This document shows, in pieces, positions 8,711 through 58,720 of a stretch of DNA of 58,798 bases. Source of the DNA: Opitutaceae bacterium (GTDB lineage Bacteria > Verrucomicrobiota > Verrucomicrobiia > Opitutales > Opitutaceae); the NCBI GenBank assembly GCA_035299125.1, contig DATGXA010000350.1, forward strand, positions 1 through 58,798, written 5' to 3'. The notes beneath the pieces are model-generated. The model had not been told where the DNA came from. It ran no database searches and saw only the letters and a list, made by a program, of their open reading frames with translations. Numbering within the stretch: the first letter of the stretch is position 1; each line of letters starts with the position of its first letter. The position numbers and the translations under genes were made by a program.

Positions 8711-8723
8711 CGGACGGAGGGAA

Positions 8724-23043: not shown

Positions 23044-23401
23044 TCGGCCCTTATCCCGCCCAGTCATGGCCCCCGCCACGCGTTGGCGCCACCACACCCG
23101 AGCCTTCCGTTTCCATACGCTCGCGGCATCAGGGAGAGACAAACGAAGCCTTTCCCACTCGCGGGTTTTGCGGGCATGATCCTCGTCCGCCAAATCTCCG
23201 CCAACCCGCAGTCGTCCTAATCCGCATCGCTTCTCTAATGAGTGAGCATTGTAGCTCGTTTCGATTAGGGTTTAGGATTTGCCGAGACGCGTCGGCTAAT
23301 AGTTCTCGTCGCCCTCTGCTTTTCTATCAGCAACTTCGAAGTTTGACCCGATAGAACACCTTCCCATTTCCTCCCTGTCTCTGCCTCGCGCCTCCTCCCA
23401 C

Positions 23402-42649: not shown

Positions 42650-42697
42650 AGCAGCCCGGGCCTCGCGCCCGACAGTCTCTGGTTTCGTTTTCCAACG

Positions 42698-42733
42698 ACG
42701 GCCGCGGCTCCCACCGCGGCCGTTCTGTTTCTC
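42698..42733 (+). terminator. Intrinsic terminator after gltD
   Basis: ACGGCCGCGG-ctccca-CCGCGGCCGT (10-bp stem) followed by TCTGTTTCTC. Confidence 0.7.
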
Positions 42734-42824
42734 GCCCTCGGGTTGTCCATCGATCCAGCAAAATTCGCCGTCGGACAAAATTCCGAAACTTTTTCACGCC
42801 CTCCGAGTTATCGTTGGCGTGAAA

Positions 42825-43571
42825 ATGCTCCGCGCTCTCCGCGTCGTCGTCCTCCTCCTGATCGGCCTCCCCGTCGCCCTCGGTGAAGTCGCTCCCGCCG
42901 CGCTCTCCCACCTGCTGCGCGCCCGCGCCGAACTCGGCGATTCACACTGGTCCGCGATCCTCCGCCTCGCCGGCAACGACCCCGCCCGGCCCGCCGACAC
43001 CGCCCTCGTCTTCGAGTTCGCCAACGCCCTCTGGTTCTATCGTCCGCTCGACGGCACGCAGAGCCTCTCCCGCCACTGGAACAACGTCGCCGCCGAGCGT
43101 CGCGATCTCCTCCCGCTCCTCCAGCGCATCGACGCCGACTACACCAGCTTCAGCGAATACGACCCCGTCGCGCTCGCGGCCGGCGCCCCCAGCACCGGCG
43201 AACTCCCCAACGGCTGCTTCATCCAGAGCGTCGCCGAAGCCCGCCGCCTCGAGCGCGAAGCCGCCATCACCGACGGCTGCCTGCTCTCGTACTACGCCGA
43301 CACCGCCGAGGGCCTGCGCGGCCACACCGTATTGGTCTATCATGACGCCAACGGCTCGCATGTCTTCGATCCCGCCGAGGGTCGCACCACCGACACCCCG
43401 AAGACTTCGCTCTACGACGAGGCGCTCAACCTCGCCCGCCGCATCACACCCTTCGCGCTCGCCACCCGGCTCACCAAGGCCGCAAAGATCACGCTCTTCA
43501 AACGCGACGGCGACACCGCACCGCACAAGGCCTCCGCGCGCTCAAGCAACCGTCGCCCGGTGCTCCGCTGA
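42825..43571 (+). CDS. Secreted hypothetical protein with a possible Cys/His/Asp (transglutaminase/papain-like) triad
   Basis: Start set at ATG 42825 (MLRALRVVVLLLIGLPVALGE is a signal peptide). 'PNGCFIQSVAEARRL...GHTVLVYHDANGSHVFDP'. I recognise no family with confidence. Confidence 0.6.
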   Translation: MLRALRVVVLLLIGLPVALGEVAPAALSHLLRARAELGDSHWSAILRLAGNDPARPADTALVFEFANALWFYRPLDGTQSLSRHWNNVAAERRDLLPLLQRIDADYTSFSEYDPVALAAGAPSTGELPNGCFIQSVAEARRLEREAAITDGCLLSYYADTAEGLRGHTVLVYHDANGSHVFDPAEGRTTDTPKTSLYDEALNLARRITPFALATRLTKAAKITLFKRDGDTAPHKASARSSNRRPVLR

Positions 43572-43677
43572 ACACCGTCCTCCAGCTGCCCGCTGCGCCG
43601 TAACGGTTGATTCGAGCGCGACGGGCGCCGCAAATCCGAGCCGGGCCCGCGCCTCGGTGTTCGTCACGCGTCCGAAC

Positions 43678-43692
43678 TGGCACCTCTTTCGC
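43678..43692 (+). promoter_or_regulatory. Candidate sigma-54 (-24/-12) promoter upstream of the giant repeat gene
   Basis: TGGCACCTCTTTCGC, that is TGGCAC-N5-TcGC with the exact GG-N10-GC spacing. It lies about 118 nt upstream of the ATG at 43810. Confidence 0.35.
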
Positions 43693-43809
43693 GCCCGTTC
43701 CTCACGGTGTATCCGCCGTTCGTCGCGGCGGCGTTGCGCCGCCATTGCGTGCGACCTGAAACTTCGCGTATAGATTTCGTGTCTCGCTCACTCCGGGTCG
43801 CGCGCTCCT

Positions 43810-46800
43810 ATGTCCATCCCCTCAATCTCGACCTATTCGCGCCAGGCGATCGCGAATCTGACCACCACCGAGCTGCAGGGCCTCACGTCGACGGAGTTCG
43901 CTTCGTTGCTCGCCTCGCAGATCAAGTCGCTCACTACCACCCAGGTCGAGAGCCTCACCGAGACCGCGCTCGCCGCGATGACGGCGACCCAGATCAAGGC
44001 GCTCAGCGCCGCGCAGGCCACCGCGCTCACGTCGAGCCAACTCATCGTCTTCAGCGCGACCCAGTTCTCCACCTTCAGCTCGGCGCAGCTCGCCGGTATG
44101 TTGCCCGCCGAGATCGCCGCGCTCACCACGACCCAGCTCGCCGGCCTCGCCGCCAATGATTTCGGCGAACTCTCCGCCGCGCAGGCGGCCGCTCTCACGA
44201 CCGAGCAACTGGCTGTCCTCACCCGGTCGCAGTTTTCCGGTTTCAGCGGCGCAAGCCTCGGCAGCTTCACCACGACACAGCTGCAATCGCTCGCACCCAC
44301 GCAGTTCGCCAACCTCAGCACCACCGCCCTCAGGGGCCTCAAGGCCACGCAAATCACCGAGCTCACGCCCGAACAGCTCGGCGTCCTCACCGCCACGCAA
44401 CTCGGCGCACTCGCCGCCGCGACCGTGGGCGCACTCACCGGCGAGCAGGTGGCCGCGCTCACCACCACCCAGCTCGGCGGCCTCCTGCCCACGCAACTCG
44501 CCGCGCTCGGCGCGCCGCAGCTCGAGGCGTTGGGCGCCACACAGCTCGCTTCGTTCGACATCGCGCAGCTGCGCAATCTCACCTCCACCGCGCTCAGCCT
44601 GCTCACCGCCACGCAACTCGCCGCGCTTTCCGACACGCAGCTCGCCGCCCTGGCCACGACTCAGCTCAGAGGGCTCACCGCGACCGATGTCGCCGAGCTC
44701 ACGCTCACGCAACTCGCCGCCCTCACCGACACGCAACTCGCCGCCCTCTCGCTCACCGCGCTCTCCGGCCTCACGACCACCCAGATCGCCGCGCTCTCCG
44801 TCTCGGAACTCTCCCATCTCAGCGCTTGGGCGGTCGGCTCGTTCTCCGCGGCCCAGATCGCCGCGCTCTCCCCGACGCAACTCGCCGGTCTCGCGACCAC
44901 CCAGGTGCGCAACCTCTCCTGGAGCTTCATCGCAGCGTTGTCGGCCAACCAATTCGCCGCGCTCGGCACCGCCCAGATCGCCGCGCTTTCCACCGCGACC
45001 ATCAAAGGCCTCGAGATCACCACGCTCGCCGCGCTTTCCGCCTCCCAGCTGCGGGCCCTCACCTCGTACCAACTCGCCGCGCTTTCCTCCACGCAGGTCG
45101 CTTCGCTCTCCACCACGCAGCTCGGCGTGCTCACCCCCACTCAGCTCGCGACCTTCACGAGCACCGACATCGCCGCGCTCGCCACCACCCAACTGGCCGC
45201 GCTCTCGGGCACGCAGTTCGCCGCCCTCTCCATCTCCGCCATCAAAGGCCTCTCCGGCTCCCACCTCGCCGCATTGACCGAGACGCAGTTTGCCGCCCTC
45301 ACGAGCACCCAGGCCGCCGCGCTCACCACCACCCAGGCGGACCAGCTCAGCACCACGCAATTTGCCGCGCTCACCACCACCCAGCTCCGCGCGCTCAACG
45401 CCGCCGTGCTCGGCTCGCTCGCCGACGAACAGATCGCCCTCCTCACCACCACGCAGATCGCCGCCCTCTCGCCCGCCCAGCTCGGCCGTTTCACGCCCAC
45501 CAGCCTCGCCGCCTTCACCACCACACAGATCGCGGCGTTCTCGGCCGCGCAGTTGGCCGGGCTCTCCGCCGCGGCGTTCACCGGTCTCGCGGAGACCCAG
45601 ATCGCCAGCCTCGCACCGTCGCAGCTCGGCGCGCTCTCCTCGAATCACCTCAAGGCACTTTCAAGCACGCAGATCTCGCAGTTCAGCCCCGCGCAACTCG
45701 CCGCTCTCTCCGCCGCCCAGTTGCGCGGCCTCACCGCGTCAAACGTAAGCGCGCTTGAGGCCACCCAACTCGCCGCGTTCTCCGCCGAGCAGATCGCCGG
45801 CATCACCGTCACCCAGATCCAAGGGCTCAACAGCACCGATCTCGGCGAGTTCACCACCACGCAACTCGCCGCTCTCACCACCACCCAGTTCGCCGCCCTG
45901 CGCACCGCCATCGTCGCCGGTCTCACCACCACCCAGATCGCCGCGCTCTCCACCACCCAGCTGAACGCCCTCGCCGGGCGCACCTTCGGCTTCCTCACCG
46001 AGACCCAGCTCGCCGCCCTCTCCGCCACTCAGCTCGCCGCGCTCACCACCACCAAGCTCCGCAACCTCACCACCACCCAAGCCGCCGCGCTCGACGTCAC
46101 CCAGCTCGCCCGTTTCTCCAGCACCCAGCTCGGCGCCATCGCCCCCGCCGCTTTCGCCAGCCTCGGGGAAACGCAGATGGCCGGTCTCACCACCACCCAA
46201 CTCCGCGGCCTCACCACGGCCCAGATCGCGGCGCTCAGCACCACCGGCGTCGATGCCCTCGGCGCCATGCAACTCGTCGCGCTCTCCACCACCCAGATCG
46301 CCGCCCTCGGCGCCACCCACCTCGGCTCGCTCACCGACACGCAGCTCGCCGCCTTCACCACCACTCAAATCGCCGCCCTTTCCACCGCCGCGATCAAAGG
46401 CCTCACCGAAGCCCAACTCACCGCGCTCGACGCCGCCCACCTCGCGGCGCTCACCTCGACCGCGCTCTCCGGCCTCACCGCCACCCAGCTCGCACAGCTC
46501 CCCGTCGCGCAGCTCCTCGCCCTCGCCACCCACCAGCTCCGCGGCTTCACCAGCGCGCAACTCGCCGCCCTCAACGAGACCCAGCTCGCCGCGCTCGCCT
46601 CCACGCAACTTTCCGCCCTCGCGAGCACCCAGCTCCGCGGCCTCACCGCCACCGCGCTCACCCAGCTCACCACCGCGCAACTCCAGGCGTTGACTTCCGC
46701 CCAGCTCGCCGGCTTCGCCACCACCGCGATCCCCGGGCTCACCGAGGAGCAGCTCGCCACCCTCTCCATCACCCAGCTCCGCGGCCTCACCAGCACCCAG

Positions 46801-49800
46801 CTCGCCGCTCTCACCACCACCCAAGCCGGCCACCTTGCCGAGACGCAGCTCGCCGCCCTCTCCACCACCCAACTCCGCGGCCTCTCGAGCACCGCCGCCA
46901 GCGCGCTCACATCGACGCAGCTCGCCGCCCTCAGCTCCACCCAGCTCGCCGCGCTCACCACCGCGCAACTCGCCGGCCTCACCAGTACCGACATCAACGA
47001 GCTCAGCCTCACCGAACTCGCCGCGTTCGCCTCCACTCAGCTCGCCGCCCTCTCCACCGGCGCTCTCGCCGGTTTCACGACCACGCAGCTCGCCGCCCTC
47101 TCCACCACCCAGCTGAAGGGCTTCACCGCCGCGCAGCTCGCTGCGTTCTCCGCCGACCAACTCGACACGTTCGCCACCTCGCAACTGGCCGCCCTCACCA
47201 CCACCCAGCTCGGCGGCCTTTCCGCCACCCAGCTCGGCGAACTCTCGCTCACCCAACTCGCCGTCCTCTCTCCCGCCCAGTTCGGCGCGCTTTCCTCCGC
47301 CGCCGTGCGCGGCCTCGCGGAAACGCAGCTCGCCGCTCTCACGCTCACGCAACTCGACGGCCTCACCGCCACCCAGTTCGCCGCCCTTTCCGCCACCCAG
47401 ATCGGCCAGCTCGCGAGCACCCAGCTCGCCTCGCTCTCCATCACCCAGCTCAAAGGCCTCACCGCCACCGGCCTCGCCGCCCTCGGCACCACGCTGCTCG
47501 AAGCACTCTCCTCCACCCAGCTCGCCGCCCTGCCGGCCACCGCGATCACCGGTCTCACCGAGGAACAGCTCGCCGCTCTCTCGACGACGCAGTTCGCCGT
47601 CCTCACCTCCACCGAACTCGCCGCGCTCACCGCCACCCAGATCGGCCTCCTCAGCGCCACCCAACTCGCCGCCCTTTCCACCCTGCAAATCCGCGGCTTC
47701 ACCGCCACCCAGCTCGCCGCACTCTCCGAAACGCAGCTCGCGACCTTCGCCACCACCCAGATCGCCGCCCTCTCCACCACCCAGGTCGCCGGCCTCAACC
47801 ACACCGAACTCGCCGCCCTGAGCCCCGCGCAACTCGCCGCGCTCTCCTCACTCCAGCTCGGCGCGCTCGCCACCGGCGCCGTCTCCGGTCTCACCACCGC
47901 GCAATTCGCGTCGCTCTCCGTCACCCAGCTCGCCGGTTTCTCCAGCACGCAACTCGGCGCCCTCACGACGACCCAAGTGAGCGAGCTCTCCGTCACCCAG
48001 CTCTCCGCCCTTTCCGCCCACCAACTCCGCGGCCTCACCAGCACCGGCGTGAGCACGCTCACCTCCGCGCAGTTCGCCGCGTTGAGCACCACGCAGCTCG
48101 CCGCACTCACCACCGCACAGATCCAAGGCCTCACCGCCGCCGACACCGCCGAGCTCAGCCTCACCGAACTCGCCCGTCTCACCTCCACCCAGCTCGCCGC
48201 CCTCACCACCACCGCGCTCTCCGGCCTCGACACCACCCAACTCGCCGCCCTCGCCACCACCCAGGTCGCCGCCTTCGTCGCCGCGCAACTTGCCGCGTTT
48301 TCCACCGCGCAGTTCGCCGCGTTGAGCACCACGCAGCTCGCCGCCCTTTCCACCTCCGGCGTCGCCGGCCTCACCTCGACCAATCTCGCCGGGCTCGACG
48401 CCACCCAACTCGGCGCGCTCTCCGCCGCGCAGCTCGGCGCCCTCGCCACGACCGCGCTCTCCGGCCTCACCATCACCCAACTCGGCGAACTCTCGACCAC
48501 GCGCCTCAACGCCCTCCGGCCCACCCAGCTCGCCGCACTCGCCACCACGCAGCTCGCCGCCTTCAGCACGACTCAGTTCGCCGCCCTCTCCACCACCAAC
48601 CTCGCCGGCCTCGTCGACACCCAGCTCGCCGCTCTCTCGCTCGACCAACTCGCCGCACTCTCCACGCGCCAGCTCGCCGCTCTCTCCGCCACCGGCATCG
48701 ACGGCCTCACGACCGACGCCGTCGCCGCCCTCTCCGCCACCCAGCTCGCCGCGCTCACCACCGCACAACTCGCCGGCCTCACCGCCGCCCAATTGCGCGC
48801 GTTCACGACCACGCAACTCGCCGCGCTCTCCGCCGTCCAACTCCACGGCCTCCCTGCGACCCAGCTCGCCGCCTTCGCCGCCGAGCAGATCGCCACGTTC
48901 TCCACCGCGCAACTCGCCGAACTCTCCAGCACCGCACTCGGCGGCTTCACCGCCGCGCAGCTCGCCGCGCTCTCACCCGACCAGCTCGCCGCGTTCGCCT
49001 CCACGCAGCTCGCCGCACTCTCCAACACCGCGTTGGCCGGGTTCACCGCCACCACGCTCGCCGGCCTCACCACCCGCCAGCTCGCCGCGCTTTCGAGCAA
49101 CCAACTCGCCGCGCTCTCCACCGGCCAGCTCGCACAGCTCGCCGCCACCCAAGTCGCCGCGCTCTCCACCACCGGCGTCACCGGCCTCACCGAGACGCAG
49201 CTCGGCGCCTTCAACGCCACCCAGCTCGCCGCACTCACCGCCGCGCAATTCGCGCACCTCACCGCCACCGCCCTCGAAGGTCTGAGCGGGGCCGACATGG
49301 CGGCGCTTTCCGTGACCCAACTCCGGGCGCTCAGCGCCACCAGCCTCGCCGCCCTCGGGTCCCACCAGCTCGCCGGCCTCGCTGCCACTCAGGTAGCTTC
49401 GCTCACCACCACACAGCTCGCCGCCCTCGCGCCCGACGCCCTCACCGGTCTCGCCGTCGAGGATTTCGCCGCGCTCTCCCACACCCAGCTCACCGCGTTC
49501 ACTGCCGCGCAGTTCGGCGCGTTCACCGAAACACAGGTCGCCGCCCTCGCGCCCACGCAGATCGCCGCGCTCTCCGCCACCCAACTCGCCGGCCTCGACA
49601 GCACGCAGGTGGCCGCGCTCTCCGCCACCCAGCTCGCCCAGCTTTCGCCCGAACAACTCACGCTGCTCTCGCTCGCCGGCCTCGACGGCTTCACACCCGC
49701 CAAGATCGCCGCACTCTCCACCGCACAGCTCGGGGCGCTCACCGCCGCGCACCTCGCCAGCCTCGCCGCCACCCAAGTCGCGGCCCTCACCGCGACCCAG

Positions 49801-52638
49801 CTTGCCGCGCTCACGACCACGCAGCTCAACCAGCTTTCGGAGACGGGCCTCGCAGCATTCACCGCCGCCCAGATCGCCACGCTCTCCACGACTCAGGTCG
49901 CCGGCCTTTCCACCATCCAATTCGCCGGCCTCACCTCGACCGAGGTCGCCGCGCTCGGCGCCACGCAACTCGCCGCACTCTCCACCCGCCAGCTCGCCGC
50001 CCTCGACACCACCGCAGTGGTCGGTCTCGGCGCCACGAGCTTCGCCGCACTCTCGGCCACGCAGCTCGCCGCATTCACCTCCACCCAGTTCGGCGCGCTC
50101 ACCAACGCGCAACTCGCCGCGTTCGACACCACGCAGCTCGCCACCTTCTCCGCCACCGAATTGCGCGGCCTCACCGAAACCCAGGCCGCCGCCTTCTCCA
50201 CCACGCAGCTCGCCGCGTTGTCAGCCACGCAGTTCGCCGCGCTCTCCACCCTCGCGATCGCCGGCCTCACCGCCACGCAACTTGCCGCCCTTTCCACCAC
50301 GCAAGTGAAGGGCCTCGCCGTCACCGGCCTCGCTGCGCTCACCACCCGCCAACTCGACGCCCTCAGCGGCACCCAGCTCGCCGCGCTCTCCACCACGCAG
50401 CTTCGCGGACTAACGAGCACCCAGATCGGCGCGCTCGGCGCCCCACAACTCGCCGCGTTGGCCACGACGCACATCGCCGCGCTCGCCGCCACCCAGCTGC
50501 AAGGTCTCTCGAGCACCGGCGTCGCCGCCCTCGCGCCCACGCAGCTCGCCACGCTCTCCGCCGCTCAGATCGCCGCGCTCTCCACGACCGGCATGGCCGG
50601 GCTCACCACCACCGAACTCTCGGCCCTCTCCACGCGCCAACTCGCGTCGTTCACCGCCACGCAGATCGGCGCCTTCTCCGCCGAACAACTCGCCACCCTC
50701 ACCACCACCCAGGTGCGCGTGCTCACCGCCGCCGAGATCGGCGGCCTCACCTCGACCCAGGTCGCGGGCCTCTCCGCCGCGCAACTCGCCGCCTTCTCCA
50801 CCACGCAGCTCGCCGCCCTCTCCGCCACCGGCGTCAAGGGCCTCACCGCCACGCAGCTCGCCGCCTTCACCGGCACCCAGCTCGGCGCCCTAACCGCAGC
50901 CGAGTTCGCCGCCCTCACCACCACTCAGGTCGCAAATCTCGCCACGACTCAGCTCGCCGCGCTCACCTCAACCCAACTCCGCGGCCTGACCACCACCGGG
51001 CTCGGCGCGCTCTCCGCCGAACAATTCGCCGCGCTCTCCACCACGCAGCTCGCGAACCTGTCGCTCGCGCAATTCCAGGGGCTCACGAGTTCCGCCATCG
51101 CCGCACTGTCCACGACCCAACTCGCAGCGCTCTCGACGACCCAGCTGGCCAACCTCTCGACCACCGCCGTCACCGGCCTCGCCGCGAGCGATTTCGCGGC
51201 GCTCACCGCGCGCCAGCTCGGCGCGTTCACCGCCACGCAGCTCGGCGCGCTCACAACCACGCAGGTTGCCGCGCTCGACGCCGAGCTGCTCGCCGCGTTC
51301 ACCACCACGCAGGTGCGCGGCCTCGCCGACACGCAGGTCGGCGCGTTCTCCACGACCCAGCTCGCCTCTCTCTCCACCGCGCAGCTCGCTTCACTCTCCA
51401 CCGGCGGCGCCTCCGGCCTCACCGCCACCCAACTCGCTTCGCTCAGCACCACGCAGCTCGGCGCCCTCGCCGCCACCGAGATCGAAGCGCTCGCCACCAC
51501 TGCGCTCGCCGGCCTCTCGGCCACCACGCTCGCCGCGCTCACCACAACGCAGCTCGCCAGCCTCGCCGCCACCGGTCTCGCCGCGCTCACGACCACGCAG
51601 CTCGCCAGCCTCGGCACCGCCCAGCTCGAGGCGCTCTCCGCCACCGGTCTCGCCGGCCTCACCTCGCGCCAAGTCTCCGCACTCTCCGCCACGCAGCTCG
51701 CCACGCTCGGCGCCAACCAACTCGCCTCGCTTTCCACCACCGGCCTGCGCGGTCTCACCGCCGCCCAGCTCGCCACGCTCACGACCGCGCAGCTCGTCGC
51801 GCTCGGCGCCGAAGGTGCGGCCGCGCTCTCCGCCACCGCCGTATCCGGACTCTCCACCACGCAGCTCGCCGCCCTCACCACCGCGCAATTCGCCAGCCTC
51901 TCGGCCGAGGGCATCTCCGGTCTCGGCACCGCGCAGTTCGCCGGCCTCAGCGCCACCCAGCTCGGCATGCTCAACGCCACCGAGCTCGGCGGTCTCACGG
52001 CCGCGCAGCTCGCCGCCCTCTCTGCGGCCAAGTTCGAGACGTTCTCCACCGCGCAGCTCGCCGCCCTCTCGACCTCCGCGATCTCCGGCCTCACCGCCGC
52101 CCAGCTCGCCGCCCTCGACGAGACCCGCCTCGACGTCCTCACCTCGACTCAGCTCGCCGCCCTCACCACGACCCAGATCGGCCAGCTCTCGACGACGCAG
52201 ATCACCGATCTCTCCACCACGCAGATCGCCGGCCTCGTGCGCCCGCAACTCCGCGCGCTCAATGCCGAGCAGTTTGCCGCGCTCGCCCCCGCGCAGATCG
52301 CGGCCCTCGGCGGCGCGCAATTCGCAAACCTCACCGCCACCGAACTCCGCGCCCTCAGCCCCGCCCAGCTAGGCGCCGTCACCGCGGCGCAGCTCGGCGC
52401 GCTCGCCGGCCCGCAGTTCGGCGCCTTCAGCACCACGCAGTTCGACCAGCTCGCCGCCACCCAGCTCACCGAGCTCACCACAACCACGATCCAGGCGCTC
52501 GAAACGACGACCGTCGCCGCCCTCACCGTGCACCTGATCGAGTCGCTCACCGCCACACAGCTCGCCGCCCTCACCGGCGAACAGCTTGCGCTGTTCTCGC
52601 CCGCCCAGCTCGCCGCCTACCAAAGCGCGCGCGTCTGA
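43810..52638 (+). CDS. Giant (2,942 aa) octapeptide-repeat protein, consensus L-[ST]-[TSA]-[TA]-Q-[LIFV]-[AG]-[AG]
   Basis: A single uninterrupted 8,829-nt ORF, by far the longest of the six frames here. Codon choice (ctc/gcc/acc/cag) matches the neighbouring genes. It has no N-terminal signal peptide (MSIPSISTYSRQAIANL...). Confidence 0.8.
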   Translation: MSIPSISTYSRQAIANLTTTELQGLTSTEFASLLASQIKSLTTTQVESLTETALAAMTATQIKALSAAQATALTSSQLIVFSATQFSTFSSAQLAGMLPAEIAALTTTQLAGLAANDFGELSAAQAAALTTEQLAVLTRSQFSGFSGASLGSFTTTQLQSLAPTQFANLSTTALRGLKATQITELTPEQLGVLTATQLGALAAATVGALTGEQVAALTTTQLGGLLPTQLAALGAPQLEALGATQLASFDIAQLRNLTSTALSLLTATQLAALSDTQLAALATTQLRGLTATDVAELTLTQLAALTDTQLAALSLTALSGLTTTQIAALSVSELSHLSAWAVGSFSAAQIAALSPTQLAGLATTQVRNLSWSFIAALSANQFAALGTAQIAALSTATIKGLEITTLAALSASQLRALTSYQLAALSSTQVASLSTTQLGVLTPTQLATFTSTDIAALATTQLAALSGTQFAALSISAIKGLSGSHLAALTETQFAALTSTQAAALTTTQADQLSTTQFAALTTTQLRALNAAVLGSLADEQIALLTTTQIAALSPAQLGRFTPTSLAAFTTTQIAAFSAAQLAGLSAAAFTGLAETQIASLAPSQLGALSSNHLKALSSTQISQFSPAQLAALSAAQLRGLTASNVSALEATQLAAFSAEQIAGITVTQIQGLNSTDLGEFTTTQLAALTTTQFAALRTAIVAGLTTTQIAALSTTQLNALAGRTFGFLTETQLAALSATQLAALTTTKLRNLTTTQAAALDVTQLARFSSTQLGAIAPAAFASLGETQMAGLTTTQLRGLTTAQIAALSTTGVDALGAMQLVALSTTQIAALGATHLGSLTDTQLAAFTTTQIAALSTAAIKGLTEAQLTALDAAHLAALTSTALSGLTATQLAQLPVAQLLALATHQLRGFTSAQLAALNETQLAALASTQLSALASTQLRGLTATALTQLTTAQLQALTSAQLAGFATTAIPGLTEEQLATLSITQLRGLTSTQLAALTTTQAGHLAETQLAALSTTQLRGLSSTAASALTSTQLAALSSTQLAALTTAQLAGLTSTDINELSLTELAAFASTQLAALSTGALAGFTTTQLAALSTTQLKGFTAAQLAAFSADQLDTFATSQLAALTTTQLGGLSATQLGELSLTQLAVLSPAQFGALSSAAVRGLAETQLAALTLTQLDGLTATQFAALSATQIGQLASTQLASLSITQLKGLTATGLAALGTTLLEALSSTQLAALPATAITGLTEEQLAALSTTQFAVLTSTELAALTATQIGLLSATQLAALSTLQIRGFTATQLAALSETQLATFATTQIAALSTTQVAGLNHTELAALSPAQLAALSSLQLGALATGAVSGLTTAQFASLSVTQLAGFSSTQLGALTTTQVSELSVTQLSALSAHQLRGLTSTGVSTLTSAQFAALSTTQLAALTTAQIQGLTAADTAELSLTELARLTSTQLAALTTTALSGLDTTQLAALATTQVAAFVAAQLAAFSTAQFAALSTTQLAALSTSGVAGLTSTNLAGLDATQLGALSAAQLGALATTALSGLTITQLGELSTTRLNALRPTQLAALATTQLAAFSTTQFAALSTTNLAGLVDTQLAALSLDQLAALSTRQLAALSATGIDGLTTDAVAALSATQLAALTTAQLAGLTAAQLRAFTTTQLAALSAVQLHGLPATQLAAFAAEQIATFSTAQLAELSSTALGGFTAAQLAALSPDQLAAFASTQLAALSNTALAGFTATTLAGLTTRQLAALSSNQLAALSTGQLAQLAATQVAALSTTGVTGLTETQLGAFNATQLAALTAAQFAHLTATALEGLSGADMAALSVTQLRALSATSLAALGSHQLAGLAATQVASLTTTQLAALAPDALTGLAVEDFAALSHTQLTAFTAAQFGAFTETQVAALAPTQIAALSATQLAGLDSTQVAALSATQLAQLSPEQLTLLSLAGLDGFTPAKIAALSTAQLGALTAAHLASLAATQVAALTATQLAALTTTQLNQLSETGLAAFTAAQIATLSTTQVAGLSTIQFAGLTSTEVAALGATQLAALSTRQLAALDTTAVVGLGATSFAALSATQLAAFTSTQFGALTNAQLAAFDTTQLATFSATELRGLTETQAAAFSTTQLAALSATQFAALSTLAIAGLTATQLAALSTTQVKGLAVTGLAALTTRQLDALSGTQLAALSTTQLRGLTSTQIGALGAPQLAALATTHIAALAATQLQGLSSTGVAALAPTQLATLSAAQIAALSTTGMAGLTTTELSALSTRQLASFTATQIGAFSAEQLATLTTTQVRVLTAAEIGGLTSTQVAGLSAAQLAAFSTTQLAALSATGVKGLTATQLAAFTGTQLGALTAAEFAALTTTQVANLATTQLAALTSTQLRGLTTTGLGALSAEQFAALSTTQLANLSLAQFQGLTSSAIAALSTTQLAALSTTQLANLSTTAVTGLAASDFAALTARQLGAFTATQLGALTTTQVAALDAELLAAFTTTQVRGLADTQVGAFSTTQLASLSTAQLASLSTGGASGLTATQLASLSTTQLGALAATEIEALATTALAGLSATTLAALTTTQLASLAATGLAALTTTQLASLGTAQLEALSATGLAGLTSRQVSALSATQLATLGANQLASLSTTGLRGLTAAQLATLTTAQLVALGAEGAAALSATAVSGLSTTQLAALTTAQFASLSAEGISGLGTAQFAGLSATQLGMLNATELGGLTAAQLAALSAAKFETFSTAQLAALSTSAISGLTAAQLAALDETRLDVLTSTQLAALTTTQIGQLSTTQITDLSTTQIAGLVRPQLRALNAEQFAALAPAQIAALGGAQFANLTATELRALSPAQLGAVTAAQLGALAGPQFGAFSTTQFDQLAATQLTELTTTTIQALETTTVAALTVHLIESLTATQLAALTGEQLALFSPAQLAAYQSARV
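43858..52620 (+). repeat. 24-bp-periodic coding tandem repeat array (about 365 units)
   Basis: The period-8 amino-acid pattern stays in the same register at residues 17, 2385 and 2937 (all 1 mod 8). There are local higher-order duplications, for example an exact 40-nt match between 48065-48104 and 48305-48344 (offset 240 nt, 10 octads). Confidence 0.9.
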
Positions 52639-52694
52639 GAAACGTGTCTCCGTTTTCCTGAGCCAGCCCGGCCGCCGCGCGCCCACCTTCCGCC

Positions 52695-54707
52695 ATGTCG
52701 CCCGTTCCACCGCCCTCCGATCCCCTCCAGTCGATGGCCCCCGGCTTCAGCGTCACCGAGCTCATCCGCACCGCCGAGACGCTCAAGCAGACCGGCCAGA
52801 CCGCCGCCATCGAGCCGCTCTACGCCACCTGGATCGCGCGCAACTCCACGCACCCGCTGCTCTACGCCGTTCTCTTCAACTACTCCGTCACGCTCTCCGA
52901 CGCCGGCAAACTCGACGCCGCCCGCACCGCCCTCGAGCGCGCCCTCGCGCTCAACGCCGACTTCATGCCCGCCCACATCAACCTCGGGCGGCTCTACGAG
53001 CGTCTCGGCATGGTCGGCCTCGCCCTCGTCCAGTGGTCCGCCGTCAGCACCAAACTCGCCGCCGTCAACGGCTCCGCCATCGCGCACAAGACGATGGCGC
53101 TCAACCAAAGCGCGCGCGCCCTCGAGGCCGCCGCCCAAGACGAGCCCGCCGAGGATCTCCTCCGCCAGAGCCTCGAGATCGACCCGCGCCAGCACGAGGT
53201 CGCGCAACACTTCCTCGCCCTCCGCCAGCGCCAGTGCAAATGGCCCGTCGTCGTTCCCTGGGAACGCGTCGATCGAGAGACGCTCCTGCGCGGCATGTCG
53301 CCGCTCTCGCTCGCCGCCTACACCGACGACCCGCTGCTCCAGCTCGCCGCCGCCGCGCACTACAACCGCACCGAGATCGGCGCTCCCGCCTCGCCGCTGC
53401 CCGCGCTCGATCGCGCTCGTGCCGGTGGCGAGCGCCTGCGCATCGGTTACGTCTGCTCCGATTTCCGCGCCCACGCGCTCGGCTACCTCCTCACCGAGGT
53501 GCTCGGCCTCCACGACCGCGCGCGCGTCGAGGTCTTCGCCTATTACTGCGGCCCCGAGGCCAACGACCCGCTCCACGCGCAGTTCCAGGCCACCGCCGAT
53601 CACTGGCTGCCCATCACCGCGCTCGACGATGCCGCCGCCGCCGCGCGCATCGCGGCCGACGGCATCCAGATCCTCGTCGATCTCAACGGCTACACCCGTG
53701 ACGCCCGCGTGAAACTCTTCGCGCTGCGCCCCGCGCCGGTCCTCGTCAACTGGCTCGGCTACCCGGGCACCATGGCGAGCCCGTATCACCACTACGTCAT
53801 CGCCGACGACTGGATCGTCCCGCCCGAGCACGAGCAGTACTTCTCCGAACGCGTGCTCCGCCTCCCGTGCTACCAGCCCAGCGCACGCACCCGCGCCGTC
53901 GCGCCCGAGCCACCCACCCGCGCCGCCGCCGGCCTGCCCGAGGACGCGGTCGTCTACTGCTGCTTCAACGGCGCGCACAAGATCACCCGTTTCACATTCG
54001 ACCGTTGGCTCTCCATCCTCGAACGCGTGCCGCGCAGCGTGCTCTGGCTGCTCGGCAGCTCCGACGCCGCGCAGGACCGCCTCCGCGAACACACCACGCG
54101 CCGCGGCCTCGACCCGCAACGCCTCGTCTTCGCCCCCAAGCTCGCCAACCCGCACCACCTCGCGCGCTACCCGCTCGCCGATCTCTTCCTCGACACCACG
54201 CCCTACGGCGCGCACACGACCGCCTCCGACGCGCTCTGGATGGGCGTGCCCGTGCTCACGCTCAGCGGCCGCTCCTTCGCCTCGCGCGTCTGCGGCAGCC
54301 TCGTGCGCGCCGCCGGCCTGCCCGAACTCGCCTGCACCAGCGCGCTCGCCTTTCTCGCCACCGCGGTCGACCTCGGCCTGCATCCGGAAAAACTCCGCGC
54401 GCTCCGCGCCCGCCTCGCCGCGAACCGCGACACCTGCGTCCTCTTCGACATGCCGCAGCTCGTCGCCCGCCTCGAGGATCTCTACGCCGAGATGTGGGCC
54501 GATCTGGAAGCCGGCCGCCTCCCACAGCCCGATCTCGCCAACCTCGACGTTTACCTCGAGGTCGGCGCGCCGCTCGACCACGAGGAGATCGAAGTGCAGG
54601 CGATCGACGATTACCACGAGTTCTGGCGCGAACGCCTCCTGCGCCGCCACGCCCACCGCCCGATCCCGACCGACCGCCGCCTGATCGACGCCCCACGCTT
54701 CGGCTGA
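52695..54707 (+). CDS. TPR-repeat + GT41-family glycosyltransferase (O-GlcNAc transferase / SPINDLY-like)
   Basis: N-terminal TPR-like helices ('ALERALALNADFMPAHINLGRLYERLG'). The C-terminal GT41 pattern is 'LRIGYVCSDFRAHALGYL', 'ILVDLNGYTRDARVKLFALRPAPVLVNWLGYPGTM', 'VVYCCFNGAHKIT' and 'DLFLDTTPYGAHTTASDALWMGVPVLTLSG'. No signal peptide. Confidence 0.88.
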   Translation: MSPVPPPSDPLQSMAPGFSVTELIRTAETLKQTGQTAAIEPLYATWIARNSTHPLLYAVLFNYSVTLSDAGKLDAARTALERALALNADFMPAHINLGRLYERLGMVGLALVQWSAVSTKLAAVNGSAIAHKTMALNQSARALEAAAQDEPAEDLLRQSLEIDPRQHEVAQHFLALRQRQCKWPVVVPWERVDRETLLRGMSPLSLAAYTDDPLLQLAAAAHYNRTEIGAPASPLPALDRARAGGERLRIGYVCSDFRAHALGYLLTEVLGLHDRARVEVFAYYCGPEANDPLHAQFQATADHWLPITALDDAAAAARIAADGIQILVDLNGYTRDARVKLFALRPAPVLVNWLGYPGTMASPYHHYVIADDWIVPPEHEQYFSERVLRLPCYQPSARTRAVAPEPPTRAAAGLPEDAVVYCCFNGAHKITRFTFDRWLSILERVPRSVLWLLGSSDAAQDRLREHTTRRGLDPQRLVFAPKLANPHHLARYPLADLFLDTTPYGAHTTASDALWMGVPVLTLSGRSFASRVCGSLVRAAGLPELACTSALAFLATAVDLGLHPEKLRALRARLAANRDTCVLFDMPQLVARLEDLYAEMWADLEAGRLPQPDLANLDVYLEVGAPLDHEEIEVQAIDDYHEFWRERLLRRHAHRPIPTDRRLIDAPRFG

Positions 54708-54724
54708 TCCGGATGGTTCACACG

Positions 54725-54739
54725 TGGCGAAAATCGCCA
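54725..54739 (+). terminator. Weak hairpin after the GT41 gene
   Basis: TGGCGA-aaa-TCGCCA, 18 nt after the stop. The downstream U-tract is poor (aaggctttcg). Confidence 0.3.
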
Positions 54740-55436
54740 AGGCTTTCGACCCGGCCGAGCGCAGATCGAAACTCTCGCGAATTTCGTTACAGCGCCTCGT
54801 TTCCACCTCCATCGGAAGTGTGAAACTTGCGGGCTGACGTCCCGCCCGCCACCGCTCCCCGGCATCATCTCCCCCACATCGCGTCCCTCCCGCCCCCGGG
54901 GGCAACATGTCAACTATTGGTTGACGCAGCCATGCGCCCGCATCCGAGCGCGACCCGGCGCGCGCCCTCGGTCGCACCGCTCGTTGCAGCGCGCCACCCG
55001 CCAGCAGTGGCACCATCGGCGCATCCCGCTTGGTCGGATGCGCCGTCCGCGGGCAACGACCACGCCAGCCAACGCAGTTCGCACAGTGGCTGCAGCGAAG
55101 GCCGGAGCGCTCAAGGAGCTCGGACCCGAGGCATCGGAAAGCCACTCGCCTTCGGGTGCGTGCCTCGAGGCACGCCTCCACGACGCAATTCTCCGTGATC
55201 TCCTTCCCGCTCCCTTTCGATTCTGTGACCTGCCTGCATTGCCGTTCCCAAGCCGGATCGCTGCATCGGACCCGGCGACGTGCCGAAAATCCCTAAGAAA
55301 TCCGCGGCTCGCGTGTCTTCATCGGGTGGAGCCTCCACGGCTCCGATTCCCGTTGCCCATGCGCGCCCCGGCCATCGCCCAAGTTTTCTCGCCACCCTCC
55401 AGTATTTCCGGTCTGGTGGCGCGATCAACCCCGCGC

Positions 55437-55943
55437 ATGGATCCGGAGCCACCCACCTTGGCTGCGTTGTTCGAAGAAGAGGAATCCGGCCTGCTGCGCT
55501 ACGCGCTCGGGCTCACGGGTCGCCGGCCCGTCGCCGAGGAGCTGGTGCAGGAGGCGTTTCTCCGTCTCCACCAGTCCTGGGCCGAGGTGGAAAACCCGCG
55601 CGCCTGGCTCTACCGCACCGTCCGCAACCTCGCGCTCAACCACCTCCGCGACCACCCGCTCGAGACCGAGCTCGCCGCCGACACCGCATCGACCAACGAC
55701 CGCTCCGCCGCCGAGCGCCTCGGCCGGGACGAAGCCGTCGGCACCGTGCGGCTCCTCCTCGCCGAGCTCCCCGCAGACGACCGCCGCCTCATCCACCTCA
55801 AGTACCACGAGGAGCTTCAGTATCAGGAGATCGGACGCCGCACCGGCCTCACCTCCGGCAACGTCGGCTATCGTCTGCACCACCTCCTCAAAACGCTGGC
55901 CGATGGTCTCCGCCGCGCCGGCATCGAAGGAAGCGAGGGCTGA
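55437..55943 (+). CDS. ECF (sigma-70 family group IV) sigma factor
   Basis: Start set at ATG 55437. Region 2 'LLRYALGLTGRRPVAEELVQEAFLRL...NPRAWLYRTVRNLALNHLR'. Region 4 'LPADDRRLIHLKYHEELQYQEIGRRTGLTSGNVGYRLHHLLKTL'. Confidence 0.88.
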   Translation: MDPEPPTLAALFEEEESGLLRYALGLTGRRPVAEELVQEAFLRLHQSWAEVENPRAWLYRTVRNLALNHLRDHPLETELAADTASTNDRSAAERLGRDEAVGTVRLLLAELPADDRRLIHLKYHEELQYQEIGRRTGLTSGNVGYRLHHLLKTLADGLRRAGIEGSEG

Positions 55944-55945
55944 AC

Positions 55946-58720
55946 ATGACACAGGAAAACACGCCGCCCGCCCCGCACCGCCCCACCGACACCGAGCTCG
56001 AGGAACGCATCGTCGCCTGGGTTCTCGGCGAAGCCTCCGCGTTCGAGATCGCCGCGCTGGAAGCGGTGGTCGCCGCCCGTCCCGAATTCGCCGTCTTCAA
56101 ACGCCGCATCGAGGCCGTCCACGGCCTCGTCGCCGCAGCCGCGCGCGAGAATGCCGCTCCGCTCCGCCTCTCTCCTGATCGCCGCGCCAGACTCCTTGCC
56201 GTGATCGGCTCCGCCCCTGCAGTAGCCGGGGGCGCCGCCCCCGGCAAAACCGCCGCGCAATCCAAGTCCGCCGCCCCCACCAAACCCTCCGTCGTGCGCC
56301 TGCCACGACCGCCCGAGCGCCCGTGGTGGCGCAACGAGTGGTTCTACTCCGCCGCCGCCTGCGTGGTCATCAGCATCGGTGGCTTCTGGATGCTCGGCAC
56401 CGTCTCTCCGAACAAACCGCAGAGACCAGATCCGGATGCCATGCTCGAGTGCATTCAACCTTCAGCTGAAGAAGAAGCGCCAGACAGTTTCCCGGAGCCA
56501 CCGGGCGACGTCCCGCACTTCGAACTCACAGTACCGACGAGGAGCATGGCACCGATTGCTGCGAACTATTCGTGGTCTGCTCCGAAAGCCGCAACAGCGC
56601 CACGAGTCGCGCCGAAACCGAACCTCGTGTTCGGCACGTTCGGTACGACGGATCTCGACAGGAAAAAGGAGGTGGTGGTCAGTGGTTTCTCCCAGTTCTC
56701 CGAACAGACCGGTGAATCCGATGCTTCCAGCGCCGCCGGTTACGCCAGTAAGACTGTCGCCGAATCGAGCGGGGTGCTGGATAAGTTCGAAGTCAATGAA
56801 ACGGAGTCCCGCGGTTACACGGCGACTAATACGCTCGGAGGCACACGTCTTCGCACCGAACTCAAGGACATCAGCTCGTCGATATCGGTCGTCACGAAGC
56901 AGTTCATGAAAGACGTCGGGGCGACCAATAAAGAGTCGGTGCTCGGCTACAGCGGAAATGCTGAAGTCGGCGGTCTAGAAGGAAATTTCGCGGGGAAACC
57001 CGCCGCCCCCCGCGACAACTTCCTCTCCAAGCGCAAGACCGAGCGCATCGGTGGAAAGGGTGGGGCGCCGGCTCCGGCCGCGCCTGCGGTCGGCGGCGAA
57101 GCGGAGGAAGTCGTGGTGCTCTCGCCGTTCTCTGTCGCGAGCTCGCAGGACTCCGGCTACCTCCGGAGCAATCGCGCACCGAAGCTGCCGAAGCGTCCGG
57201 CCCCCTCCGCGACCACCGCCGGCATGGGCCCCGGCGGACTTCAACCAACCGACGTCGATCTCAATCTCCAAGCAGCCGCGTCCACCACGTCCACGCCGTC
57301 CACTCAGTCCACTCCTTTCGCCCTCGCCGAGTCCGCCACCGACCACCCTCTCCCGCGCCCCGCCCAAAAGCTCGCCGCCCCACCGCCCTCCACCGACGAA
57401 ACCAGCGCCGCGCATGAGCCCGTCTCCACGTTCTCCCTCCACGTGAGCGACGCCTCGTTCAAGCTCGCGCTGACCGCGCTCGCCGCCGGCCGCCTGCCCG
57501 ACGCCGCTTCGATCCGCCCCGAGGAATTCTACAACGCCTTCGACTACGGCGATCCCGCGCCCGGCGCCGGCGAAAAAGTCTCCTGCCGCCTCGAGCAGGC
57601 CGCGCATCCGTTCGCGCAGCAGCGCAACCTCGTGCGCATCGCCGTGCGCGTGCCGGCCACCGGCCGCGGCTCCGGCACGCCGCTCAACCTCACCGTCCTC
57701 CTCGACACCTCCGGTTCGATGGAGCGGCCCGACCGCCGCGCCGCAGTGCGCGCCGCGCTCCGCACGCTCGTCGGCCTGCTCGGCCCCGCCGACCGCCTGA
57801 CGCTCGTCGGGTTCGCGCGCCAACCGCGCCTGCTCGCCGAGGCGTTGGATGGCAACCACGCCAACCAAGCGCTCGATTTCCTCGACCGCACTCCCGCCGA
57901 GGGCGGCACGAACCTCGAGGAGGCGCTCAAGCTCGGTGGCGAGCTCGCCCGCCGCCATTTCGCCGAGGCCGCGCAGAACCGCATCGTCCTCCTCACCGAC
58001 GGCGCCGCCAACCTCGGCAACGCCGACCCCGAGCGCCTTGCCGCCGCCATCGAGACGCTGCGGAGCCAGCGCATCGCGTTCGACGCGTGCGGCGTCGGCC
58101 TCGAGGGCGTCGACGACGACATGCTCGAGGCGCTCACCCGCAAGGGCGACGGCCGCTACTACGTGCTCGATTCGCCCGAGGCGGCCGACGCCGGCTTCGC
58201 CCGCCAGCTCGCCGGCGCGTTTCGCCCCGCCGCCGAGAACGTGAAACTCCAGGTGCGTTTCAACCCCGCGCGCGTCGGCCGCTACCGGCTCGTCGGCTTC
58301 GAGAAACACCGCCTGCGCGAGGAGGATTTCCGCAACGACGCCGTCGATGCCGCCGAACTCGCCGCCGAGGAGGCCGCGGTCGCGCTCTACGAGGTCGAGG
58401 TGTTGCCGCAGGGCGAGGGCGAGGTCGCCGAAGTGCTGGTCCGCTTCCGCGACACCGGTTCGAAGGAGATGGTCGAGCGCGGCTGGACGGTGCCCTACGA
58501 GCCGCGCGCCGCGGCGTTCGACCGCGCCTCGTCGAGTCTCCAGCTCGCGGGCACAGCGGCCGCGCTCGCCGAGAAACTCCGCGGCGGCGCCGCCGGCGAC
58601 CGCGTCGATCTCGATGCCCTCGCGCCGTTCGTCGCCGCCCAACGCGCCCGCCGTCCCGACGACAAGCGGCTCCAGGAGCTCGCGACGTTGTTCGAGCAAC
58701 TCCGGAGGATGAAGCGATGA
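55946..58720 (+). CDS. Anti-sigma-like N-terminus + TM + TonB-receptor-plug-like segment + vWA/YfbK-like domain fusion protein
   Basis: The start at ATG 55946 lies 3 nt after the sigma gene stop. N-terminal 'EERIVAWVLGEASAFEIAALEAVVAARPEF', TM segment 'WFYSAAACVVISIGGFWMLGTV', MIDAS 'VLLDTSGSMERPDR...GGTNLEEAL...IVLLTDGAANLG', then 'VRFNPARVGRYRLVGFEKHRL' (DUF3520-like). Confidence 0.8.
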   Translation: MTQENTPPAPHRPTDTELEERIVAWVLGEASAFEIAALEAVVAARPEFAVFKRRIEAVHGLVAAAARENAAPLRLSPDRRARLLAVIGSAPAVAGGAAPGKTAAQSKSAAPTKPSVVRLPRPPERPWWRNEWFYSAAACVVISIGGFWMLGTVSPNKPQRPDPDAMLECIQPSAEEEAPDSFPEPPGDVPHFELTVPTRSMAPIAANYSWSAPKAATAPRVAPKPNLVFGTFGTTDLDRKKEVVVSGFSQFSEQTGESDASSAAGYASKTVAESSGVLDKFEVNETESRGYTATNTLGGTRLRTELKDISSSISVVTKQFMKDVGATNKESVLGYSGNAEVGGLEGNFAGKPAAPRDNFLSKRKTERIGGKGGAPAPAAPAVGGEAEEVVVLSPFSVASSQDSGYLRSNRAPKLPKRPAPSATTAGMGPGGLQPTDVDLNLQAAASTTSTPSTQSTPFALAESATDHPLPRPAQKLAAPPPSTDETSAAHEPVSTFSLHVSDASFKLALTALAAGRLPDAASIRPEEFYNAFDYGDPAPGAGEKVSCRLEQAAHPFAQQRNLVRIAVRVPATGRGSGTPLNLTVLLDTSGSMERPDRRAAVRAALRTLVGLLGPADRLTLVGFARQPRLLAEALDGNHANQALDFLDRTPAEGGTNLEEALKLGGELARRHFAEAAQNRIVLLTDGAANLGNADPERLAAAIETLRSQRIAFDACGVGLEGVDDDMLEALTRKGDGRYYVLDSPEAADAGFARQLAGAFRPAAENVKLQVRFNPARVGRYRLVGFEKHRLREEDFRNDAVDAAELAAEEAAVALYEVEVLPQGEGEVAEVLVRFRDTGSKEMVERGWTVPYEPRAAAFDRASSSLQLAGTAAALAEKLRGGAAGDRVDLDALAPFVAAQRARRPDDKRLQELATLFEQLRRMKR

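Follow-up and report, generated by a model that had tools for sequence, protein, structure and literature searches.

A giant ALTTAQ octad-repeat protein and an adjacent OGT-like GT41 enzyme as a candidate substrate and glycosyltransferase pair

Is a giant, threonine-rich repeat protein that is encoded directly before a glycosyltransferase the dedicated substrate of that enzyme? The question is raised by a 58,798-nt stretch of DNA from an Opitutaceae bacterium (contig DATGXA010000350.1, assembly GCA_035299125.1), which at its full length is called the window here. A gene at 43810..52638 (+) encodes a protein of 2,942 aa, the giant, made of 367 octads in a single register and belonging to the Pfam family PF20080 (ALTTAQ repeat); it is followed by a gene at 52695..54707 (+) for a 670-aa enzyme of glycosyltransferase family 41 (GT41; PF13844), the family of the O-GlcNAc transferase (OGT). 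A preliminary description of this DNA had proposed that the two form a dedicated substrate/glycosyltransferase pair, and this reading is supported by strong comparative evidence obtained in both directions, starting from the enzyme and starting from the repeat. In the interpretation that we consider probable, the pair is one functional unit, in which the giant would be O-glycosylated by its own cytoplasmic GT41 enzyme before being exported without a signal peptide.

Conservation of the gene pair

The TGA of the giant gene ends at 52638 and the ATG of the GT41 gene lies at 52695, leaving a gap of 56 bp (spacer 52639..52694, +), and the open reading frames (ORFs) thus bear out the adjacency on the same strand that had been described. 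The second Met of the enzyme (M14, ATG at 52734), which is the start used by one database entry (657 aa), would give a gap of 95 bp; both candidate start Met residues are conserved among homologues, and M14 could be the true start. It had also been stated that no terminator is visible between the genes, and the spacer indeed lacks a convincing one: the terminator scan returned a single weak hairpin at 52629-52647, with 6 pairs including 2 G-U, and folding of the 56-bp spacer gave z = -0.29 against shuffled sequence, so that this match was discounted as a genuine terminator. In the related loci the intergenic gaps range from -44 to +332 bp, and such short or overlapping gaps, together with a spacer without a significant hairpin, are consistent with an operon.

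Related loci, 159 in total and designated below by L-numbers, were collected in scans from both sides. The GT41-seeded scan, with one genome per GTDB species, gave 80 loci with GT41 enzymes 47-68% identical to that of the window, 75 of which had enough upstream DNA to be evaluated; a same-strand ALTTAQ ORF ended within 500 bp upstream in 59/75 and was present elsewhere within 10 kb in 10 more, making 69/75. The repeat-seeded scan of metagenomes, which used conserved octad patterns from a three-row in-register alignment, gave 77 loci, and in 44 of the 57 whose 3' end was complete and which had 1 kb or more of DNA after it, this GT41 started within 700 bp downstream. An earlier metagenome scan with the C-terminal 599 aa of the giant had found no relatives, the peptide patterns chosen for it being unique to the window protein. 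Conservation of the pair was a test set beforehand in the preliminary description, and the pair proved to be conserved from either direction.

The paired GT41 enzymes span 47% to 93% identity to the window enzyme and come from several phyla; among the hosts of the GT41-seeded loci are Rhodospirillales, Caulobacterales, Hyphomonadaceae, Hyphomicrobiales, Acetobacteraceae, Magnetococcales, Verrucomicrobia, deltaproteobacterial metagenome-assembled genomes (MAGs) and others that carry the label Marinimicrobia. In the two closest relatives (GT41 identities of 93% and 87%) one finds the same pair with a 2,942-aa partner and differing downstream genes, and the partners in L007, L035 and L083 are PF20080 members by Pfam, with 978-1114 bits. 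Clustering of the other ORFs in the first 82 loci revealed no other conserved neighbour, the largest family, a mixture of epimerases and dehydratases, being present in 25/82. The adjacent and co-oriented pair is therefore kept across distant genomes while its neighbours vary, the pattern by which a dedicated gene pair is recognised.

The association also extends to shorter proteins. A homologue search with a giant fragment matched only proteins of up to 700 aa and revealed other ALTTAQ architectures, in which short ALTTAQ proteins are fused to SPM, calpain, DUF1217, DUF4347 or Peptidase_S74. A GT41 enzyme with tetratricopeptide repeats (TPR-GT41) adjoins a short ALTTAQ protein in 2/5 informative contig look-ups. 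In L162 (Candidatus Accumulibacter, 6001-9668) the gene of an ALTTAQ+SPM protein is followed by one for a TPR-GT41 with 41% identity to the window enzyme, and in L165 a TPR-GT41 (35% identity) is encoded immediately before an ALTTAQ+DUF4347 protein. The ALTTAQ+SPM gene of L162 stands in a flagellar cluster, after FliD/FliS/FliT/FliK, with the TPR-GT41 and a methyltransferase downstream of it, and in L164 (4257-7287) a DUF1217-ALTTAQ protein is encoded directly 3' of flagellin and FlaF.

Other transferases also occur: 21 loci encode a second GT41 paralogue, and in some loci without a GT41 the giant gene is followed by a GT1-family transferase (L133) or by an FkbM methyltransferase and an epimerase (L130). 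In 12-14 loci, mostly of Phenylobacterium/Caulobacter types, the GT41 gene is followed by one for a protein of ~650-900 aa with TPRs and an unknown C-terminal domain (L025, L027, L028, L031-L033, L035, L037, L039, L041, L075 and L078; e.g. L032 5316-7220). Searches of Pfam, NCBIfam and the PDB with this C-terminal domain gave no match; the protein holds a 'VSDIDLL' motif, perhaps a DxD signature of glycosyltransferases.

The repeat protein and the enzyme

With the octad positions numbered 0-7, so that position 0 is Leu, 1 Ser/Thr, 3 Thr, 4 Gln and 5 Leu/Ile, the profile of the giant reads L-[ST]-[TAS]-T-Q-[LIVF]-A-[AG], the residues by position being L/F 97%, S/T 74%, T/A/S, T 61%, Q 70%, L/I/V/F 96%, A/G/R and A/G. 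Of its 278 Gln residues, 258 fall at one position modulo 8 from residue 1 to residue 2,942, and because they keep this position throughout, there is no register shift in the 367 octads. The repeats are conserved in pattern and degenerate in sequence: Tandem Repeats Finder reports a 24-nt period with ~300 copies and only 61% matches, and the most frequent exact octad occurs only 5 times. The giant has no separate N- or C-terminal domain, the octads running from its start ('MSIPSIS...') through to its end, and homologues of other phyla have the same octad-only ends and a similar first octad (MSISSLSAAQIAALS). One to three Ser/Thr residues at positions 1-3 are found in 342/367 octads, and Ser and Thr total 771 in the whole protein; the idea that nearly every octad offers potential acceptors thus stands, with the restriction that not every Ser/Thr need be one, that at position 1 being probably structural. 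The reading frame is conserved in relatives beyond chance, as the comparison with L001 gives 633 synonymous versus 537 non-synonymous codon differences, an excess of synonymous change.

By Pfam the giant is a clear member of PF20080, with 1058 bits against a cut-off of 26.4 over 109 stretches; at octad position 3 the giants carry Thr and the consensus of the family carries Ala. Its other Pfam matches (CAAP1, LRR_EndoS and Sigma70_r4_2) were dismissed as repeat noise, since no stretch was individually significant. The preliminary description knew of no octad-repeat substrate for a bacterial GT41; the repeat itself is already on record in Pfam. PF20080 consists of a sequence model alone: neither a function nor a structure came to light for the family, and literature searches with ALTTAQ, PF20080 and repeat strings found no relevant paper. 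About 2,400 representative protein clusters match the ALTTAQ repeat, many of them of 1,000-4,500 aa.

The length of the giant is conserved to the residue within lineages. The giants of the window, L001 (1123-9951) and L002 (1111-9939) are all of 2,942 aa, with zero indels at 74-82% amino acid identity (78-84% in DNA), and a control alignment of the 2,942-aa giants shifted by one octad gave 38% identity. The same is seen elsewhere, where three giants of Hyphomonadaceae/Terricaulis MAGs (L054, L055 and L058) are each of 2,104 aa at 71-74% identity, and those of L051 and L061 are both of 2,133 aa at 63% identity. Between lineages, the length differs, from about 1,000 to 3,300 aa. Tandem arrays commonly gain and lose units, and that a 24-nt tandem array retains its exact length in species that have diverged speaks for an unusual constraint on the structure. 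The apparently fixed length within lineages suggests selection on total length, which would fit a ruler-like or geometrically closed assembly.

We modelled a 320-aa fragment of the giant with AlphaFold2, using as the alignment eight other non-overlapping fragments of the same protein, and obtained a mean predicted local distance difference test (pLDDT) score of 92.7 and a predicted template modelling (pTM) score of 0.80. In this model each octad forms one 5-residue helix (positions 2-6) and a 3-residue linker (positions 7, 0 and 1), with minor irregularities where position 7 is Gly, often every four octads, and the stacked helices are predicted to build a long solenoid. From helix-capping rules, Ser/Thr at position 1 is probably the helix N-cap and Gln at position 4 the N3 residue of a capping box; the Leu (position 0) and Leu/Ile (position 5) residues would be buried, and positions 2 and 3 are placed in the exposed first turn of the helix. 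A Foldseek search of the PDB with the model gave nothing above a template modelling (TM) score of 0.31, the top and weak match being mesothelin. A solenoid with a helix in every 8 residues and no solved counterpart, predicted at high confidence, may represent a new fold.

The enzyme, for its part, matches Glyco_transf_41 (PF13844) with 281.9 bits against a cut-off of 25 (E = 1e-83) and matched no NCBIfam model. Its best sequence match in the PDB is 2JLB, the OGT homologue XcOGT of Xanthomonas campestris (E = 3e-87), followed by human OGT (6e-81) and, at a distance, the HMW1C-type 3Q3E (4e-5). In an AlphaFold2 model built from 38 homologues, with a pLDDT of 86.6, aa 9-179 form ten N-terminal helices; these precede a GT-B core with two lobes of alternating strands and helices, and extra helices lie at the C-terminus. 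The best structural match of the model in Foldseek is again XcOGT 2JLB, with a TM score of 0.85 and 35% identity. The ten helices form a TPR-like domain (52719..53231, +), delimited by DSSP on the model and by alignment with the TPRs of XcOGT, and each individual TPR Pfam model (about aa 50-115) falls slightly under its own cut-off. The term TPR-GT41 can accordingly be retained for the helices, of which there are about five hairpins as in XcOGT, and not in the sense of the long array of OGTs. The GT-B catalytic region (53427..54509, +; ~aa 245-605) carries the His of DFRAH, the Lys of FNGAHK (K429) and the PYGAHTTASD segment. DFRAH and FNGAHK align with H218 and K388 of XcOGT and with H558 and K842 of human OGT, and the HTT-x-x-D phosphate-binding motif is present.

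Among 73 relatives derived from the loci, N425, K429 and P503-Y-G-A-H-T-T509 are at least 95% conserved, and F424, N425, G426, H428 and K429 are invariant in the closer set of 38 sequences. A His at the position of human OGT Y841 was considered as a signature of the clade and given up, as it is invariant only in the close subclade and varies among the 73 relatives. The C-terminal extension of ~65 aa (54510..54704, +) is absent from XcOGT, whose alignment stops near aa 586, and is moderately conserved in the clade, with conserved columns at P612, L617, Y640 and W644 and modelled helices at aa 617-624 and 640-654. Given the conservation of the Lys, of the His and of PYGAHTT and the match of the model to XcOGT at a TM score of 0.85, the enzyme looks catalytically active. 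Judged by sequence and model, it is an enzyme of the OGT/XcOGT type with a short TPR-like domain and a GT-B core.

Glycosylation, donor sugar, export and the alternatives

It can be hypothesized that the TPR-like domain of the enzyme binds the unfolded or nascent repeat chain and that the enzyme O-glycosylates Thr/Ser in most octads, the best candidate being the exposed Thr at position 3; the modified giant would then leave the cell without a signal peptide, most likely via type I secretion, to become a glycosylated surface fibre or matrix protein. The glycosylation of the giant by the GT41 enzyme, the acceptor residues, the timing and the export are all points that we infer from the sequences. 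Modification in the cytoplasm is supported because neither protein has a hydrophobic N-terminus, the maximal Kyte-Doolittle mean over 15 residues in the first 60 aa being 0.74 for the giant and 0.66 for the enzyme, in agreement with the absence of signal peptides noted previously. As for the acceptor, position 3 is Thr in ~60% of the octads of giant proteins, and in short multidomain ALTTAQ proteins it is Ala in 29% and Thr in 24%; Ala also stands at this place in the name of the family. Since Ala is tolerated there in the short proteins, the fold does not depend on Thr at position 3, which in the giants is an added feature and the best candidate, and the position-3 Thr is probably the acceptor.

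The donor sugar deserves separate consideration. The assignment to the O-GlcNAc transferase family stands in so far as the enzyme is a PF13844 member of the OGT/XcOGT type, and does not extend to GlcNAc as the donor, which is not to be assumed in view of an invariant Tyr and of loci linked to UXS. The residue at the position of human OGT C917 is an invariant Tyr in this GT41 clade, as in the fucosyltransferase SPINDLY (SPY), where it has been argued to clash with GlcNAc, and XcOGT and TtOGT, which share the Tyr, have little or no O-GlcNAc activity (PMC9715652). The XcOGT crystals contain UDP-GlcNAc analogues (2JLB, 2XGO), which counts toward GlcNAc. The donor could thus be UDP-GlcNAc or a smaller sugar.

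A close orthologue of UXS1 (UDP-glucuronate decarboxylase, i.e. UDP-xylose synthase) directly adjoins either the GT41 gene or the ALTTAQ gene in 23/159 loci, usually on the same strand and often abutting its neighbour (L014 12001-12939, L040 3069-3998, L048 12031-12954, L076 12046-12981, L149 13832-14758, L107 11898-12824 and 17 further loci); it matches human UXS1 (PDB 2B69) at E = 3e-125, and the next family at 1e-42. This neighbour hints at xylose as the transferred sugar in those 23 loci, and for the part of the family with UXS we regard UDP-xylose as the lead donor; were it correct, it would amount to bacterial protein O-xylosylation by a GT41 enzyme. UXS was found neither in the window nor beside the pairs of its closest relatives. 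The epimerase/dehydratase gene of the window at 34768-35793 (-) was rejected as a UXS orthologue, with 109 bits versus more than 450 for true orthologues and with gltBD between it and the pair.

For the export, genes for an HlyB-type ABC transporter and an HlyD adaptor are collinear upstream of ALTTAQ-GT41 in L019, L020, L044, L047, L063, L067 and L070, the HlyD adaptor passing its NCBIfam cut-off (TIGR01843, 303 bits versus 208.65). In L163 (6001-11770) and L166 (1123-7682), ALTTAQ+calpain and ALTTAQ+SPM proteins are encoded beside C39-peptidase ABC exporters and HlyD/AprE-type adaptors, and this suggests that ALTTAQ proteins are generally type I secretion substrates. Because of the collinear loci and of the type I secretion system (T1SS) genes beside short ALTTAQ proteins, type I export is the most likely route, with transporter genes adjacent to the pair in a minority of loci. 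Literature searches on GT41 with type I secretion and on O-xylosylation found no paper on this pair.

Several observations weigh against a glycosylated and exported giant. The partners do not always occur together, since in the available DNA no ALTTAQ gene was seen near the GT41 in 6/75 GT41-seeded loci and no GT41 partner in 13/57 repeat-seeded loci. Moreover, giants without an adjacent GT41 share the Thr-rich profile of the linked giants, so the Thr enrichment does not track the presence of the enzyme in cis. OGT-type enzymes need an extended peptide, and as the repeats are predicted to be folded, modification would have to precede folding. With XcOGT, O-GlcNAc activity was seen neither on bacterial lysates nor on short peptides (PMC9715652), so that activity of such enzymes should not be taken for granted. 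Adjacent T1SS genes are seen in 6/47 loci with at least 3.5 kb visible upstream and in 13/159 overall, and the 58.8-kb window holds neither an ABC transporter nor an HlyD-type adaptor of such a system. Nor does the giant qualify as an RTX-type substrate, as it lacks the GGxGxD nonapeptide motif and its octads continue to the last few residues. RTX repeats are not carried by all T1SS substrates.

In a first alternative, the repeat protein would never be exported and would serve inside the cell as a structural element of defined length (a filament, a ruler or a scaffold, for instance), modified by the GT41 enzyme or simply bound by its TPRs. OGT-type enzymes classically modify intracellular proteins, both proteins lack a signal peptide, no RTX or other recognisable secretion module is present in the giant, T1SS genes are absent from the window and from most loci, and orthologues of the same length without indels at 63-82% identity are what a ruler or closed assembly would leave. 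We nevertheless hold such a role to be unlikely in view of the collinear ABC-HlyD-ALTTAQ-GT41 operons in at least seven loci, the T1SS genes adjoining short ALTTAQ proteins and the fusion of ALTTAQ to the extracellular-type modules Peptidase_S74 and DUF4347; the extreme C-terminal octads, too, are alike in T1SS-linked and unlinked giants. Calx-beta (PF03160) is presumably also among the ALTTAQ fusions, according to a precomputed domain listing that we did not re-check.

A second alternative, which strikes us as quite unlikely, places the targets of the enzyme elsewhere, in flagellin, pilin or many cytoplasmic proteins, with the ALTTAQ protein as a co-regulated neighbour or as an adaptor that presents substrates. 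The flagellar surroundings of the pair in L162 and of the DUF1217-ALTTAQ gene in L164, and the 6/75 GT41 loci with no nearby ALTTAQ gene, speak for it. For GT41/OGT homologues of bacteria, a link to the glycosylation of pilin has been reported (bioRxiv 10.1101/2021.07.06.449578), as has one to O-GlcNAcylation of multiple proteins (PMC11329713). However, no neighbour other than the giant repeat gene is conserved across phyla, flagellar and pilus genes are absent from the window and from most loci, and a role as adaptor would leave the hundreds of exposed Thr residues per protein unexplained.

A third possibility is that the enzyme attaches hexose to Asn residues of the giant in the manner of HMW1C. 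HMW1C-type GT41 enzymes modify giant secreted adhesins that are encoded next to them (PMC3012730), and HMW1C chains are among the weak PDB matches of the window enzyme. This mode is very improbable, for the match is at E = 4e-5 versus 3e-87 for XcOGT and 6e-81 for human OGT, the N-terminus is TPR-like as in OGTs, and N-glycosylation was rejected on the composition of the giant, which has only 30 Asn residues and 14 NxS/T sequons versus its 771 Ser/Thr. That the adjacency arose by chance or hitch-hiking, with no function, is scarcely credible given the immediate same-strand order in 59/75 and 44/57 independent loci of several phyla with differing flanks.

The glycosylated and exported giant thus remains the reading that we favour, and it can be carried a step further, to a version that is doubtful as a whole. 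In it, ALTTAQ would be the acceptor module of a widespread OGT-like branch, a smaller sugar (xylose where UXS is present) would be placed on the position-3 Thr, and the product would be a heavily glycosylated, length-locked fibre of new fold, a solenoid of 5-residue helices, exported by type I secretion. If this version were true, the pair would define a new class of bacterial surface glycoproteins and provide the first native substrate and sugar for XcOGT-like enzymes.

Surrounding genes and comparison with known systems

The window has a G+C content of ~67%, and its closest database relative is an Opitutaceae (Verrucomicrobia) MAG, GCA_047602505.1. The genes flanking the pair appear functionally unrelated to it, the other genes of the window being of the housekeeping kind (mnmE, mnmG, a two-component system, ATP synthase genes and a CitMHS transporter); at 18001-24000, where mnmG, the OmpR-type two-component system and the start of the ATP synthase operon lie, G+C dips to 0.61-0.62 versus ~0.67 elsewhere. 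On the 5' side of the pair, gltB and gltD are followed by a strong terminator (42697-42724) and by the gene of a 250-aa protein (42819-43571) that adjoins the giant gene. This protein has an N-terminal signal peptide and gave no match in Pfam and NCBIfam searches; we set it aside as a component of the system, as the only related loci that have it are those of the two closest relatives (at 88% and 73% identity). From its stop to the ATG of the giant extends a non-coding leader of 238 bp (43572..43809, +), the presumed promoter region, in which a sigma-70 scan found no promoter-like site.

Through the giant gene and the GT41 gene (44000-54000), GC skew takes strongly negative values (-0.28 to -0.41). 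The long antisense and off-frame ORFs of the same region, such as 45739-47832 (-) with 697 aa, were rejected as genes and regarded as by-products of the G+C-rich repeat. On the 3' side, the pair is followed by a gene for an extracytoplasmic function (ECF)-type sigma factor (54921-55943) and then by one for a large vWF_A/VWA/YfbK_C protein (55280-58720), in overlapping ORF calls, and these two genes are kept together in L001 and L002. An insert of 5-7 kb, absent from the window (54708-55400), separates them from the GT41 in L001 (12158-18640) and L002 (12145-16596), for which reason they were not counted as parts of the system; it contains nitrite/sulfite reductase, flavoprotein reductase and formate/nitrite transporter genes and, in L001, also an ABC exporter.

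The nearest known relative of the enzyme is XcOGT (XCC0866; 2JLB, 2VSN), which is ~39% identical to it and likewise combines a short TPR-like N-terminus with a GT-B core. The equivalents of its H218, K388 and the Tyr at the C917 position are all present in the window enzyme, whereas the C-terminal extension of ~65 aa and the first two N-terminal helices of the latter are missing from XcOGT. The genomic setting differs as well, since XcOGT lies immediately 3' of prfA, in the order hemA-prfA-OGT, in Xanthomonas campestris (L160, 8919-11707) and Stenotrophomonas maltophilia (L161, 8914-11701), and no ALTTAQ gene was found within 10 kb of it in Xanthomonas and Stenotrophomonas. The hemA-prfA-OGT order, which in Xanthomonas includes a 4-nt gene overlap, is a possible clue to the substrate of XcOGT. 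The bacterial OGT homologues XcOGT and TtOGT have been crystallised, and their natural substrates and even donor sugars are unknown (PMC9715652). For such orphan homologues, the cross-phylum pair offers a concrete and clonable candidate substrate with hundreds of identical acceptor contexts, and for the ALTTAQ family it is a first functional handle. Eukaryotic OGT and plant SPINDLY share the catalytic fold and the key residues with the enzyme described here and likewise have a TPR domain, which they use to select substrates, but they have 11-13.5 TPRs and thousands of substrates, and human OGT has Cys917 where this clade has Tyr.

In terms of gene arrangement, the HMW1C-HMW1 system of Haemophilus influenzae likewise places a cytoplasmic GT41-family enzyme beside a very large protein that is modified at many sites before its export (PMC3012730). 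HMW1C, however, has no TPRs, attaches N-linked hexose to NxS/T and is related to the window enzyme at E = 4e-5 only, and HMW1 leaves the cell by two-partner secretion. The giant serine-rich repeat adhesins Fap1, GspB and SraP of Gram-positive bacteria are O-glycosylated in the cytoplasm by GtfA/GtfB of the same locus and then exported by a dedicated route, but their enzymes are of the GT4 type, their dipeptide-like SASASAST repeats are disordered and form no folded octad solenoid, and they depend on SecA2/SecY2 and an LPXTG anchor; genes for the SecA2/SecY2 accessory Sec system and for LPXTG anchoring are absent here. TibC and AAH with TibA and AIDA-I are also similar, in that a dedicated cytoplasmic transferase modifies, repeat by repeat, Ser/Thr at a fixed position of a solenoid adhesin whose gene adjoins its own, and they differ in the enzyme family, the heptose donor, the 19-residue beta-helix repeats and the type V secretion. 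By analogy, the logic of the present pair would resemble that of HMW1C-HMW1 and of the serine-rich-repeat systems, but built with an OGT/XcOGT-type GT41 enzyme and with a repeat family to which no function had been attached.

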